In this document: positions 8,264-49,351 of the stretch, piece by piece
Layout of the letters: each line of letters starts with the position of its first letter
Position numbering within the stretch: the first letter of the stretch is position 1
Assembly: GCA_033580375.1 (NCBI GenBank)
Contig: GCA_033580375.1_4527.1
Origin: a phage
DNA length: 64,000 nt
Direction: 5' to 3' (one strand)
The notes under the pieces: model-generated
The model's database searches: none
What the model was told of the DNA's origin: nothing
Seen by the model: the letters and a program-made list of their open reading frames with translations, nothing else
Made by a program: the position numbers and the translations under genes

Positions 8264-9706
8264 ATGATCGAATTAAAAAGTCTACCATACGTTGATGGCC
8301 CTCCTGATGAGGGTCAAAAACGTTTAAACTGGATTAAAAATTCAGAAGAAATAACTGGCGCTGATACGTTATACGGTTCTGAAGGAGTAATGAACCGTCC
8401 AATAACAGAAGTTCAACGAAATGTAGAAACAATTAACGATAACGTTAAGACTATCGCAGAATCTTTAGATACCGCTAATGCTGATATTGTCACAATTAAA
8501 AGTATCTTGGATGTTTCTGGTGACGTAGATGCTTTAGCACAAATTGGACATAACACTGATGATATTGAAGTATTAAAACACACTGTAAATTCACACGGTG
8601 TTGATATTTTAAACACTGAAGAAAAACTAGATGATACTATTGCTAATATCGGAGTAGTTAATCCAGAAACAGATTCAGTGTATCGTACAGTGCGTAACGA
8701 CCTTCTTTGGATTAAAACCGAATTAGGGCAATATACCGGACAAGATATTAATGGTGTCCCGACCGAAGGTAATGAAAGCACCGGGATGAAACGACGTATT
8801 ATTACTAACAGCTCAGTGTTGGTTGACCAAGGCGTTCGTTTAACCGAGTTAGAAAATAAATTTGCCGATTCTGATGTTGGGGCTCTGACAACCGAAGTTG
8901 AAAACCTCCGTCAAGAAATAGGTCCTAGACCATCGTTAACAGTACCGGTTTACACTCGTTTATCCGGTATTGATTCATCCATTTCTATCCAAACTAGAGA
9001 TATTGCGGCATTAAAAGATTTTGTTGGATATCCTAATTCAACCGCTATTAAAACTCAAGTCGAGGCCAATCGTCTTTCTATATCAACAATAAATTCAGAC
9101 ATTAACTCGCCTGGCGGTATTAAACCACGTTTGACAACGTTAGAAACTACTATAGGCTCTCCAGATTTACCAACTACTCTTCAGGGTAAGATCAAATTAA
9201 ATACCGATTCCATTTCAGGTATTAACACAGTTTTAGGTGTTGATTCTTCTAGTGGTTTACGTTTTAATGTAGCATGGCTTAATCAGGTGGTTGGCGTTGA
9301 TTCAAATGGTGGACAACCCGAACCGGCTGGTTCACTTTTATATAGGACTCGTGTTCTTGAAACTGGTGTTACCGACCTAGGCAATAACATTCAAAACGTT
9401 CAAACTGAATTGGGAACTAATTCGTCCGGTATTAAAGGACAAGTGACTAGTTTAAATAAACTTATAAGCGGTACCAACCCAAACGGTCAAACCATAGAAG
9501 AACGTGGTATATTGCCAACAGTTAAAAACCATGACACGACAATTACAGATTTAACTACGCGTGTTACCACTTTAGAAACCGACCTTGCTGCAGCAGAAGC
9601 AGAAATTCAGGCCCTTAAAGAGGCTGGATATATTGAAGATGCTCCTTCAGATGGTAAATTCTATGTTCGCAAAGATGGTGCATGGGTTGAACTTCCTACA
9701 GCTTAA
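8264..9706 (+). CDS. wac: Fibritin (whisker antigen control, neck whiskers)
   Basis: 480 aa; C-terminal GYIEDAPSDGKFYVRKDGAWVELPTA matches the T4 fibritin foldon [21 protein letters not shown]. Confidence 0.9.
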   Translation: MIELKSLPYVDGPPDEGQKRLNWIKNSEEITGADTLYGSEGVMNRPITEVQRNVETINDNVKTIAESLDTANADIVTIKSILDVSGDVDALAQIGHNTDDIEVLKHTVNSHGVDILNTEEKLDDTIANIGVVNPETDSVYRTVRNDLLWIKTELGQYTGQDINGVPTEGNESTGMKRRIITNSSVLVDQGVRLTELENKFADSDVGALTTEVENLRQEIGPRPSLTVPVYTRLSGIDSSISIQTRDIAALKDFVGYPNSTAIKTQVEANRLSISTINSDINSPGGIKPRLTTLETTIGSPDLPTTLQGKIKLNTDSISGINTVLGVDSSSGLRFNVAWLNQVVGVDSNGGQPEPAGSLLYRTRVLETGVTDLGNNIQNVQTELGTNSSGIKGQVTSLNKLISGTNPNGQTIEERGILPTVKNHDTTITDLTTRVTTLETDLAAAEAEIQALKEAGYIEDAPSDGKFYVRKDGAWVELPTA

Positions 9707-46144: not shown

Positions 46145-46162
46145 GGGAGACCGAAGTCTCCC
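46145..46162 (-). terminator. Stem-loop GGGAGAC-TTCG-GTCTCCC followed by TTTTGTG, after the small basic ORF
   Basis: Same hairpin as at 3313 and 62229, on the - strand. Confidence 0.6.
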
Positions 46163-46167
46163 TAAAA

Positions 46168-46344
46168 TTATGCAACAACCTTTCCAAAACGAGAAGCATC
46201 ATCTCGAAGAACTGCACGTGCTCTGCGCATGATCTTCTCAACTGTTTGATTAATACGAGAGTTCGACCCACGCTTGTATCCAGCGCGTTTAGAATCACCG
46301 ACTTTCTTTTCAACTGCTTTCTTTGCTTTAGTTTGTTTTGCCAT
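46168..46344 (-). CDS. Unannotated small, highly basic protein (58 aa)
   Basis: Not in the ORF track. Translation MAKQTKAKKAVEKKVGDSKRAGYKRGSNSRINQTVEKIMRRARAVLRDDASRFGKVVA; stop is followed at once by the terminator hairpin. Confidence 0.5.
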   Translation of the reverse strand: MAKQTKAKKAVEKKVGDSKRAGYKRGSNSRINQTVEKIMRRARAVLRDDASRFGKVVA

Positions 46345-46716
46345 TATAAATTCTCTTTAAATGAAAATGCAGGACTTATTGACATTGCCTGCTCAAGCCC
46401 TCAAGGGGAACATAGGTTTTTGGATATTTAACGACCAGGATAACCATAAACCCGTCATCATACCTTATAGCTCTTATCTGTTGCACACCGTTAGCTTAAA
46501 GGTTCCGGGTTCGATTTCTCGAGGATAAGATATATACTGATGGATATATAGGCCTTGAGGCGTACTCCCGATTAGCCATCACCTCGGGGTAGCATGCACT
46601 TACCGCTATAAGAACAACATTCAAGAGGTACACCGTAAAATTGTCGGGGCGGTACTTCTAAAACATACCGATTCGCAAATCGATAATCAGACAATTCGAC
46701 GGCTCCTCGATTTAAC

Positions 46717-46965
46717 TTACTTCAGGGTAATAACAAAATGACGAACTGCTTTACGAGCTGCTGAAGCCAGAGGCTTAGCATATTTCAATTCATCTTTCTG
46801 AGCCAGTACATCACGAAGATCGGCCTGTGCTGGATTCAGATGTTTGAAATATCGCAGGATTTCCAGTGCTTCGGCTTCAACATCAATTGACGCGCCGTAG
46901 TTTTCGTGGCCATTATTCCATGCATGGCGTTGCAGTTCAAGAGCGTGTTGTAATTGTTTAATCAT
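46717..46965 (-). CDS. rIII: rIII lysis-inhibition accessory protein
   Basis: 82 aa; sequence MIKQLQHALELQRHAWNNGHENYGASIDVEAEALEILRYFKHLNPAQ... matches T4 rIII. Confidence 0.95.
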   Translation of the reverse strand: MIKQLQHALELQRHAWNNGHENYGASIDVEAEALEILRYFKHLNPAQADLRDVLAQKDELKYAKPLASAARKAVRHFVITLK

Positions 46966-47089: not shown

Positions 47090-47422
47090 TCACTTATAAA
47101 GACACGGAATAGCTTTATAGTGGCATGTTACGAATTTCTGTTTAATTTCTTTAGGTTGTTTAAGACCTAAAGCCACAAATGGATGTGGAACATTTCGAAT
47201 TTGTCCAACTGGTAGTGGAGTCAAATCACCGACTTCAACAAAACCTTCAGGAACATCAGGACCTACAGAATGAACTACACATAGTTCAGGAACTTCACCT
47301 TGAACACGTTTACCAATCACAAGTCCTGATTCGGTAACTTCTTCATCACCTGCTTGAGCGGGTTCAGAAACCAGAATGACATATTCACCAACAGCACGAA
47401 TTGGGAGTTGTACTTCAGACAT
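47090..47422 (-). CDS. 31: Co-chaperonin gp31 (GroES analogue)
   Basis: 110 aa; sequence [34 protein letters not shown]... matches T4 gp31. Confidence 0.95.
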
Positions 47423-47479: not shown

Positions 47480-47788
47480 TTACATAAGAAGCAAACGTTC
47501 GACCGGAGTACCATCAACCGAAATTACTTTATCAAGGCGGAAAGAACGCCACTGACCTAACTTGGTATCGAATGCTCGAACTGATTCACGAGGTTCATAA
47601 CGAACTTCTGTTGCCGGATTGTTATTTTCGTATTTGACTTCAAGTTCGTCGCGAGAAGCAAACATCGTACGAACATCACCGTTAGCCTTTTCAAATACAA
47701 CACAATGAACGCCTACAGACAGAATAGTTTTAATACGTTCACGAAGAACCATAGTTTCTTGTTCAGTTAAAATCATATTATTCACCAC
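47480..47788 (-). CDS. Hypothetical protein (31.1-like)
   Basis: 102 aa ORF between cd and 31. Confidence 0.55.
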   Translation of the reverse strand: MVNNMILTEQETMVLRERIKTILSVGVHCVVFEKANGDVRTMFASRDELEVKYENNNPATEVRYEPRESVRAFDTKLGQWRSFRLDKVISVDGTPVERLLLM

Positions 47789-48359
47789 AAAAGTTTCGGA
47801 TTTGTTCCCAATTCAGAGAACGAAGATTATTACGAGAGTACTGAATTACTTCAATACCAGCTTGTTTTAGAATGTCTGCCCAATTTTCAGGAGATCGGTC
47901 ATATAATTCTGCATATACAACCTTTTTAATACCTGACTGCGTAATAGCTTTAGTACAATCAGGACATGGAGAAAGCGTCGTATATAACGTAGCACCTTCA
48001 ATAGAATTACCTTTACGAGCGGCAAACAAAATTGCATTCAATTCTGCATGGATTTCATTATTAGCAGACCATGCACTATGAGCAGCTCGATGTTCTTTGG
48101 CTAAAACAAAATTATCTACCCGTCCAAATGCTGTAGTGCCTTCTTTATGTCCAGCAACGATGACTGGGATTGGTTTATTCTTCAACCAACCGTTTTCAGA
48201 TGCATGTTCGCAACAGTTAACGCCACCTGCAGGTGAACCGTTATATCCAGTAGAGATAATGCGTCCATCTTTTTCAATGACGGCACCAACTTTCCATGAA
48301 CAACATTTTGATTCTTGAGAAATCAGATATGCAATCTGAAGGTATGTGCTAGCTTTCAT
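47778..48359 (-). CDS. cd: dCMP deaminase
   Basis: 193 aa; zinc-binding HAELNA...SPCPDC motifs of the cytidine/dCMP deaminase family. Confidence 0.9.
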   Translation of the reverse strand: MKASTYLQIAYLISQESKCCSWKVGAVIEKDGRIISTGYNGSPAGGVNCCEHASENGWLKNKPIPVIVAGHKEGTTAFGRVDNFVLAKEHRAAHSAWSANNEIHAELNAILFAARKGNSIEGATLYTTLSPCPDCTKAITQSGIKKVVYAELYDRSPENWADILKQAGIEVIQYSRNNLRSLNWEQIRNFCGE

Positions 48360-49351
48360 TATTGAACCTTATTAATATAAGTTAACAGCTCTTTAGTTTG
48401 TTCCCAACTGATGCACGCATCGGTAACGGAAACGCCATAGGACATATTATCAGAAATTTTTTGATTTCCTTCATGTAGGAACGATTCTATCATAATTCCT
48501 TTGACCAAATCATTAGCTGCTAAATTTTTACCAATACCAATTTGATTGCTATAATGCCCTTCAGCGTTTGCATGGCTACAGTCAACCATTACATAATGAT
48601 TCAGACCTACTGCCCTTGCTTTGTTAGAAGCTTCTTGAATATCAGAAGAATGATAGTTCGGGCCGTTGGTCCCGCCACGCAATACGATATGCGTATTCTG
48701 ATTACCTTCAGCTTCAACAATGCCTACAGTACCATCGACGTCCATACCCATATACCGATGAGGCCAGGCGGCACTATACATCGCGTCTGTAGCTACTTTA
48801 ATAGAACCATTGGTTGCGTTCTTGAAGCCTACGCACATCGGTAGACCTGAAGCAATTTCACGATGTGTCTGACTTTCAGTCGTACGGGCGCCAATAGCAA
48901 CCCATGAGAAAATACCAGAAAGATACTTAATCGTGAATGGGTCTAATACTTCAGTTGCTAATGGAAGTCCCATACGTAGAAGTTTACGACACAATGTTCG
49001 TGCAACTATAAGACCGTGGTTCATATCAAAACTTCCGTCAAGATATGGATCATTTACAAGACCTTTCCAACCTACGGTAGTTCGAGGCTTTTCAAAATAA
49101 ACGCGCATCACTAACAGAACATTAGGAAGACGAGTTTGAAGTTCAGCCAGACGTTTGCCGTATTCAACAGCAGCAATAGGGTCATGAATTGAACAAGGAC
49201 CTACAACAATAAGTTTGCGTGGGTCTTCACCGTTCATAATCGAATTAACTTGTTCGCGATGAGAAGCCACTTGTGATGCGTAAGCTTCCGACAAAGGAAT
49301 AATCTCAGCCAGTTCTTTTGGAGAAATAAGTTTTCCGACGACAGGTAACAT
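48359..49351 (-). CDS. 3-deoxy-D-arabino-heptulosonate-7-phosphate (DAHP) synthase, class I alpha (AroG/AroF-like); auxiliary metabolic gene
   Basis: 330 aa; motifs LIVVGPCSIHD, RVYFEKPRTTVGWKGL, GARTTESQ, DCSHAN, IESFLHEGNQ and SVTDACISW match the AroG active site. Stop overlaps the cd start (TAATG). Confidence 0.85.
   Translation of the reverse strand: MLPVVGKLISPKELAEIIPLSEAYASQVASHREQVNSIMNGEDPRKLIVVGPCSIHDPIAAVEYGKRLAELQTRLPNVLLVMRVYFEKPRTTVGWKGLVNDPYLDGSFDMNHGLIVARTLCRKLLRMGLPLATEVLDPFTIKYLSGIFSWVAIGARTTESQTHREIASGLPMCVGFKNATNGSIKVATDAMYSAAWPHRYMGMDVDGTVGIVEAEGNQNTHIVLRGGTNGPNYHSSDIQEASNKARAVGLNHYVMVDCSHANAEGHYSNQIGIGKNLAANDLVKGIMIESFLHEGNQKISDNMSYGVSVTDACISWEQTKELLTYINKVQ

Follow-up and report, generated by a model that had tools for sequence, protein, structure and literature searches.

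What occupies the long gap between the genes rIII and 30.9 of this phage? We analysed a stretch of 64,000 nucleotides of DNA from a T4-like phage (hereafter the window), in which the two genes are separated by 372 bp (46345-46716, bounded by the 30.9 start at 46344 and the rIII stop codon at 46717). Spacer sizes were counted in the annotation of Escherichia phage phiC120 (Mosigvirus c120), which is 99.3-100% identical here. None of the other spacers among the 60 intergenic ones in 41 kb is as long as that between rIII and 30.9; the runner-up measures 213 bp, the median is 10 bp and 47 of the 60 do not exceed 60 bp. The original prediction described the gap 3′ of rIII as unusually long, and by this count it is. 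The local genes (cd, 31.1-like, 31, rIII and 30.9) are all encoded on the minus strand, as listed here together with a hairpin that lies 3′ of 30.9.

47778-48359, minus strand: cd (dCMP deaminase)
47480-47788, minus strand: 31.1-like gene, two genes upstream of the structured RNA described below (RNA B), with a WYL_2 / Sm-like SH3 beta-barrel domain (PF10902, E=3.7e-9)
47090-47422, minus strand: gene 31
46717-46965, minus strand: rIII, 82 aa (phrog_1457, E=2.4e-42), upstream of the gap
46168-46344, minus strand: gene 30.9, 58 aa, basic (phrog_1427, E=1.4e-30), downstream of the gap
46145-46166, minus strand: strong terminator-like hairpin GGGAGAC-UUCG-GUCUCCC, 3′ of gene 30.9, seen in the alignment

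The length of the spacer is explained by the RNA structure that fills it, and the gap is far from empty. A scan of the gap for sigma-70 promoters and terminators returned nothing convincing, a search of the gap by eye for T4 late (TATAAATA) or MotA-box promoters found none, and single-sequence folding was uninformative (z = -0.97 on the plus strand and -0.26 on the minus strand). Comparison with relatives was more productive. A BLAST search of the gap against 50,697 phage records shows that it is a mosaic. The part from 46345 to ~46461 is common to T4, Mosigvirus p000v and HY01, and the part at ~46618-46716 is common to T4 but not to p000v or HY01. The centre, ~46463-46616, is absent in T4, T2, RB6, RB68, HY01 and p000v, while 408 other phage records carry it.

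Eight diverged copies of this central block, which we call RNA B, were aligned with MAFFT and folded with RNAalifold. The result was a fold of 48 pairs, of which 26 show compensatory changes. From this alignment we built a covariance model, which identifies 46463-46616 on the minus strand (169 bits, E=4e-35) as the sole copy in the window. Among 22 distinct homologues, 95.5% of cells pair compared with 82.8% in shuffles (0 of 500 shuffles reach the observed value), and double changes, on both sides of a pair, are seen in 32 of the 48 pairs. When partners are slid by 1-3 columns the pairing drops to 27-42%, and a rerun of RNAalifold on the larger alignment recovers the same helices. It is thus strongly supported, by covariation, that the centre of the gap encodes a discrete RNA fold of ~154 nt on the minus (gene-sense) strand. 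The suggestion in the original prediction that the gap hosts a structured ncRNA therefore holds, whereas the strand, the ~154-nt extent, the four-way junction and the other modules described below were all missed. The predicted parts of RNA B are the following.

46463-46616, minus strand: RNA B, a 154-nt structured RNA with a four-way junction (P1, P2 domain, P3, P4 domain), from the covariance model and covariation
46605-46612 with 46464-46471, minus strand: P1, 5′ strand CUUAUAGC and partner GCUAUAAG, changes on both sides in all 8 pairs
46551-46604, minus strand: P2 domain, with a GGU/GCC base, an internal loop, P2b and P2c
46531-46550, minus strand: P3 hairpin UAUAUAUC...AGUAUAUA with a variable loop, 4 pairs compensatory (e.g. 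U-A to C-G, A-U to U-A)
46472-46530, minus strand: P4 domain, which encloses P5 and P6, with compensatory changes in P4
46524-46530 with 46472-46478, minus strand: P4 helix UCUUAUC/GAUAAGA, 5 of 7 pairs compensatory
46511-46522, minus strand: P5 hairpin UCGA-GAAA-UCGA, 4 of 4 pairs covary (CG, UA, UG, GC, AU)
46485-46510, minus strand: P6, ACCCG / CGG-U-GU, 2 pairs compensatory and the other 3 invariant

The fold comprises eight helices and is closed by P1, whose sequence varies freely while its pairing is kept. P1, P2, P3 and P4 follow one another with no unpaired nucleotides between them, and thus form a perfect (linker-free) four-way junction. The consensus fold has a predicted energy of -38.8 kcal/mol, against -39.6 for the minimum free energy (MFE) structure. 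The P2 domain hosts a conserved internal loop (AAGUGCAU / CUCAAG), a P2b helix with two bulges and compensatory changes in 8 of 10 pairs, and an apical P2c with a GAUG loop; its flanking loop sequences, GGCAAGnGCAUG and CCUnAnGGCC, are near-invariant. P4 reads CCGUG/CACGG in Slopekvirus. The P5 loop is a GNRA loop (GAAA or GUAA) in most homologues, the exceptions being UAAA or UAAU in two sequences and a U-rich loop in Slopekvirus. The P6 loop is conserved (15 nt, GAACCUUUAAGCUAA) and is followed by the invariant joining strand GCAACA; in EcS1 an additional hairpin is inserted in this loop. Two of the arms have internal or multi-helix loops that hardly vary at all. The invariant nucleotides of RNA B sit in internal and junction loops: GGCAAGnGCAUG, CCUnAnGGCCUAU, ACCnGGAnCC and GCUAACnGUGnGCAACnG. 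A mutual information analysis found no credible pseudoknot inside RNA B, as the signal was dominated by phylogenetic splits.

Which strand is the functional one? This is settled by the excess of G·U over A·C pairs (62 vs 11), the reading of the P5 loop as GNRA and the direction of the flanking genes. The A·C pairs on the minus strand would be G·U pairs on the opposite strand, and the GAAA and GUAA loops are of the GNRA type on the minus strand only. These strand-specific RNA features also weigh against a DNA-level element, such as an origin of replication, a site of recombination or packaging, or MITE-like mobile DNA, in which inverted repeats only resemble helices. Such an element would fit with a patchy taxonomic distribution and with presence or absence as an exact unit that has an inverted repeat (P1) at its ends. 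However, P1 covaries and its sequence is not conserved, so it is not a terminal repeat recognised by a transposase. There is one copy per genome, no target-site duplication is seen at the T4 junction, and there is no match in bacterial genomes or plasmids. We consider a DNA-level element very improbable.

Two short motifs in the gap had been highlighted in the original prediction. The 7-bp inverted repeat of TCTTATC (46472-46478) and GATAAGA (46524-46530) is the helix P4, and the compensatory changes in that helix make it a real one. It is the comparative data alone that show this, since each of the 7-mers occurs 6-7 times per strand in the window, which is not beyond chance alone. The second motif, GGTTCGATT (46508-46516), had been described as a tRNA-like T-loop. 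It lies on the antisense strand, where it covers the 3′ strand of P5 and the 5′ strand of P6, and it varies in homologues (GGGTCCGAT, GGGACTGAT, GGGTCAGAT, AGGTTGAGA). A conserved T-loop (GTTCRANYC) is thus missing from the transcribed strand. Judged from the alignment, the 'T-loop' is an unconserved antisense coincidence, and RNA B would therefore be neither a tRNA nor an intron remnant.

The explanation that RNA B is a degenerate tRNA, a remnant of a group I intron or a small protein-coding gene would draw on this resemblance and on the one to three 'hypothetical proteins' annotated there in several records; elsewhere GenBank has no annotation over RNA B. ARAGORN, a scan for tRNA and tmRNA genes, reports 0 tRNA genes in the whole 64-kb window, and the Rfam tRNA and intron models are silent at E<=10. 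BLAST places the block at a single syntenic position per phage record, against a group I or group II intron remnant, and shows no similarity to the T4 introns of td, nrdB or nrdD. The RNA B model finds no match in T4 rnaC, rnaD or the surrounding T4 genome region. As for a coding gene, the original prediction saw no convincing ORF in the gap, and indeed none of the reading frames runs uninterrupted through the core in all eight of the diverged homologues; stop codons break every frame in some homologue. The substitutions are compensatory in helices, with no codon periodicity. As far as sequence analysis goes this explanation is refuted, and we give it next to no credence. The 'hypothetical protein' ORFs drawn across RNA B in many GenBank records are spurious. 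A small ORF at AUGAUG just 3′ of P1 was considered separately and rejected, as its length is not conserved (22 codons here and 3-10 elsewhere).

Does RNA B belong to a known family? No match to the window was obtained with the 4,227 models of Rfam 15 at gathering thresholds. At E<=10, a search of the gap and of three diverged homologues returned nothing that overlaps RNA B, the nearest matches being to the terminator hairpin 3′ of 30.9 only. Of the checks that had been proposed, the covariance scan gave no known family and the homologue alignment gave strong covariation in T4-like phages. Two independent motif patterns retrieved an identical set of T4-like contigs from IMG/VR, and the covariance model finds one RNA B per T4-like contig from IMG/VR and metagenomes and nothing else credible. 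A scan of bacterial and archaeal genomes gave two matches only, one of 11.3 bits and the other unscored by the model. Together, the bacterial/archaeal and metagenome scans gained only close relatives. Two weak matches were rejected: a viral one inside a large ORF (L089) and one of 11.3 bits in a G+C-rich contig (L112). Searches by blastn at E<=10 and E<=1 found nothing similar to RNA B in plasmids or among 5,426 genomes of E. coli, and the longest complement to RNA B elsewhere in the window, 13 nt in the variable P3, is at chance level for trans base-pairing targets. On these searches RNA B is not a base-pairing sRNA or a mimic of a host RNA. Literature searches on structured and regulatory RNAs of T4-type phages, on rIII and 30.9, on surveys of phage RNA motifs and for the sequence string turned up no account of RNA B. 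We take RNA B, whose fold is strongly supported, to be a new family of structured RNA in T-even-type phages, with the novelty lying at the level of the RNA family.

RNA B is found as one copy per genome in the 408 records, which span about ten genera. These include a subset of Tequatrovirus and Mosigvirus, Dhakavirus (JS98), Moonvirus (Merlin), Karamvirus, Jiaodavirus (JD18), Marfavirus (VAC36), Kagamiyamavirus (EcS1), Roskildevirus (Cronus) and Muldoonvirus. The taxonomic range is that of T4-like phages of Enterobacterales, and copies also occur in gut and sewage metagenomes. In all the listed genera RNA B lies between rIII and 30.9; the exception is a relocated copy in Slopekvirus. Its start is often 1-16 nt past the upstream stop codon (1 nt past that of rIII in Merlin and Cronus), and 30.9 follows on the same strand after 37-180 nt in every Tevenvirinae genome examined.

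The absences are equally informative. T4 is without exactly the P1-to-P1 block, which is missing as a single unit, and BLAST of RNA B against T4 matches the flanks only. T4, HY01, p000v, WSPA and others retain rIII and 30.9 without RNA B. With its filters off, the covariance model finds no RNA B at the corresponding regions of T4 (including rnaC and rnaD), HY01 and p000v, nor in those of Providencia PSTCR6, Serratia WSPA, Acinetobacter Henu6 and Aeromonas Ah1. Slopekvirus-type genomes show the converse. In three related contigs a diverged RNA B lies at another locus, where it comes directly after a uvsY.-2-like gene and between convergent genes, with a bidirectional terminator beyond; these three loci have no conserved ORF downstream of RNA B and no 30.9 homologue. 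RNA B and 30.9 are therefore independent in both directions, with 30.9 alone in T4 and RNA B alone in Slopekvirus, and RNA B behaves as a portable, self-contained cassette that is present, absent or relocated.

In most genus pairs the nucleotide identity of RNA B is higher than that of gene 31, rIII and 30.9. For example, JD18 and Merlin share 91.7% identity in RNA B against 73.4% in rIII, 77.2% in gene 31 and 67.7% in 30.9, and JD18 and VAC36 share 96.8% against 68.0, 71.0 and 81.6%, respectively. Measured in this way, nucleotide-level constraint appears stronger on RNA B than on the flanking protein genes, though recent horizontal exchange could be part of the cause of the identity between genera. 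JD18 and VAC36, both phages of Klebsiella, share even the variable P1, which suggests that the cassette was exchanged horizontally, and recently, between phages with a common host.

RNA B is not the only structure in the gap. The remaining modules, predicted from alignments or read from the sequence, are listed here.

46625-46708, minus strand: segment C, a long interrupted stem in the rIII 3′-UTR with a U-rich 3′ side (RNAalifold, 7 sequences)
46410-46456, minus strand: module X, a probable H-type pseudoknot, from alignment pairing against shuffles
46451-46456 with 46433-46438, minus strand: stem S1 of module X, pairs in 92.5% of cells, 3 pairs covary
46442-46450 with 46410-46418, minus strand: stem S2 of module X, from the module X alignment
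46419-46432, minus strand: A-rich linker of module X, 13-14 nt, from the same alignment
46397-46408, minus strand: short G+C hairpin CCCC-UUGA-GGGC followed by UUG, family pattern (GU)ACCC-loop-GGGGCUUG
46359-46392, minus strand: hairpin GCAGG...CCUGC (46369-46392) followed by the U-rich AUUUUCAUUU, read from the sequence, immediately 5′ of the 30.9 ribosome-binding site

Segment C is common to T4. RNAalifold gives it 25 pairs, 4 of them compensatory, in the 7 sequences; it encloses an 8-bp hairpin (46666-46685) with a UGCG loop of the UNCG type, and its constant G·U pairs fit the minus strand only. A leaky terminator or a stabiliser is a possible role for it. Module X is conserved across T4-like genera, T4 included. 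When 16 sequences are aligned with MAFFT unguided, pairing is seen in 78.9% of cells compared with 69.3% in shuffles (0 of 500), and slid controls reach 33-51%. This makes an H-type pseudoknot probable, with moderate support. Module X lies downstream of RNA B here and upstream of it in JD18, Muldoon, L078 and L106, i.e. the order of the two is permuted between lineages. The (GU)ACCC hairpin is found beside RNA B, on one side or the other, in all lineages examined, and the relocated Slopekvirus copy has it too; it also occurs at L007 (~1465-1480) and L062 (~9425-9445), and it has no U-tract. The hairpin at 46359-46392 looks like a terminator or attenuator, although a strict terminator scan does not call it. 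Other genera have at this position a stem CGGGAGC...GCUCCC followed by AUGUAUUUCU, with compensatory variants, e.g. GAGAG/CUCUC, and with a variable insert (loci L002, L003, L004 and others). In many genera a hairpin UCUCC-AAAAU-GGAAGA also precedes 30.9 and would occlude its Shine–Dalgarno sequence. The conserved start of 30.9 is AUGGCUAAACAAGC, and some annotations place it too far upstream.

What might RNA B do? One possibility is that it is a cis-acting leader, a riboswitch or a protein-binding operator, that controls the terminator-like hairpin or the occluded ribosome-binding site of 30.9. The architecture is aptamer-like, with a multi-helix junction, a variable P1 and invariant junction nucleotides, in a conserved fold backed by covariation. 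In all the Tevenvirinae examined RNA B precedes 30.9 on the same strand, and the stem with its U-rich tract and the hairpin that sequesters the Shine–Dalgarno sequence (UCUCC...GGAAGA) intervene between the two. Yet 30.9 and its downstream hairpins are unchanged in T4, HY01 and p000v, which have no RNA B, and the three related Slopekvirus contigs have RNA B with neither 30.9 nor any other ORF downstream. The intervening sequence also varies by lineage, with module X either between RNA B and 30.9 or upstream, we found no other pairing that the P1 3′ strand could enter, and no Rfam riboswitch class matches. This explanation seems unlikely to us.

Could RNA B instead serve the mRNAs of rIII and 30.9, as an element for processing or stability (blocking an exonuclease or guiding endonucleolytic maturation), or as a new self-cleaving ribozyme that separates the cistrons? 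Its position exactly between two cistrons, often within 16 nt of a stop codon, would suit such a role, as would the G+C hairpins that flank it. The natural hairpin ribozyme has a four-way junction with loop-bearing arms, and the linker-free junction of RNA B recalls it. A simple stabiliser, however, does not require the nucleotides of its junction and loops to be invariant, there is no match to a known ribozyme family at E<=10, no cleavage-site signature is recognisable, and T4 has the same two genes without RNA B. We find a processing element or ribozyme a decidedly doubtful explanation.

We favour an RNA that acts on its own. RNA B would be transcribed as part of the minus-strand transcript that runs from rIII to 30.9, and would probably be trimmed out of this polycistronic RNA. 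As rIII is served by early, middle and late promoters (PMC9409239), a co-transcribed RNA B would be made throughout infection, which makes its expression over that whole period plausible. It would then act through its three-dimensional shape as an autonomous RNA, by binding a protein or small ligand present in the enterobacterial cell during infection, in an accessory role in host takeover or counter-defence and not as a regulator of one neighbouring gene. From the comparative data we judge the chances to be about even that RNA B is such an autonomous, shape-dependent ncRNA; the counter-defence role in particular is conjecture. More tentatively, RNA B may found a new class of functional RNA with a tertiary fold of riboswitch or ribozyme grade, as a portable accessory cassette of the T-even-type phages of Enterobacterales that binds and neutralises, or senses, a conserved host factor, e.g. 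a nuclease of a defence system, a nucleotide that signals in immunity or an RNA-handling protein such as S1. If true, RNA B would be an RNA-based device for host takeover or counter-defence; we regard this as possible and no better than a minority prospect. Ribosomal protein S1 has affinity for pseudoknots and A/U-rich RNA. RIII has been reported to bind S1, and a connection of S1 with module X or RNA B is a lead only.

How does RNA B compare with known systems? The closest in kind are the structured RNAs rnaC and rnaD of T4 (species 1 and 2 RNAs), which are ~120-140 nt long and co-transcribed with their neighbours; RNA B resembles them as a T-even phage RNA encoded on the gene-sense strand. 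We know of no established function for either. However, rnaC and rnaD are located in the tRNA cluster, T4 has both of them yet no RNA B, and a true tRNA-like T-arm, GGGTTCGAATCCC, belongs to rnaC. A cmsearch of the T4 tRNA/rnaC/rnaD region with filters off reaches at most 7.7 bits, which is no homology to RNA B. With riboswitch aptamers RNA B shares the multi-helix junction, the free-sequence P1, invariant nucleotides in junction and internal loops, a variable peripheral hairpin and the potential for GNRA-type tertiary contacts. It differs from them in matching no Rfam class and in not being consistently ahead of a gene, as Slopekvirus shows, and its downstream gene and hairpins occur in T4 without it.

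The likeness to the natural hairpin ribozyme extends to two arms with conserved internal loops that could dock; this is a comparison of architecture, as there is no similarity in sequence or covariance model and no identifiable cleavage site. GOLLD, ROOL, skipping-rope and PhotoRC are likewise phage-borne, strongly covarying orphan RNAs in Rfam, but their sizes and folds are different, they show no homology to RNA B, and RNA B is confined to T4-like phages of Enterobacterales. For module X only, the leader pseudoknot of T-even gene 32 is the relevant comparison, since both are pseudoknots of the H type and both lie in the 5′ leader of a small gene of T-even phages. Module X differs in locus and sequence, and its A-rich third loop has 13-14 nt.

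Few viruses have been studied as intensively as the T4-type phages, yet RNA B has apparently gone unnoticed; the probable reason is its absence from T4, T2 and the classical RB phages. The family, present in 408 isolate genomes and in metagenomes, has no relative among the 4,227 curated Rfam families, and RNAs of similar profile have repeatedly proved to act as riboswitches, as ribozymes or by sequestering proteins. The finding is real, and it is more interesting than the original prediction proposed. Natural genomes with and without RNA B, including the exact P1-to-P1 absence in T4, provide a ready knock-in and knock-out design in a tractable system.

Some minor observations concern the neighbouring genes. 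Domains of the WYL_2 / Sm-like SH3 beta-barrel fold, as in the 31.1-like gene, are frequently associated with RNA or ligand binding. This gene is also found in genomes without RNA B. Gene 30.8 matches PF06019. Adjoining the dCMP deaminase gene is a further gene of 330 aa.

48359-49351, minus strand: DAHP synthase (PF00793, E=3.7e-75)

DAHP synthase is the first enzyme of aromatic amino-acid biosynthesis, and we know of no such gene in T4. Finally, five records (OR525701.1, MZ868638.1, NC_054935.2, OR352949.1 and MZ571829.1) list a '1,4-alpha-glucan branching enzyme, GH-13-type' between gene 31 and 30.8. If this label is attached to the 58-aa gene 30.9, it may well be an annotation error.
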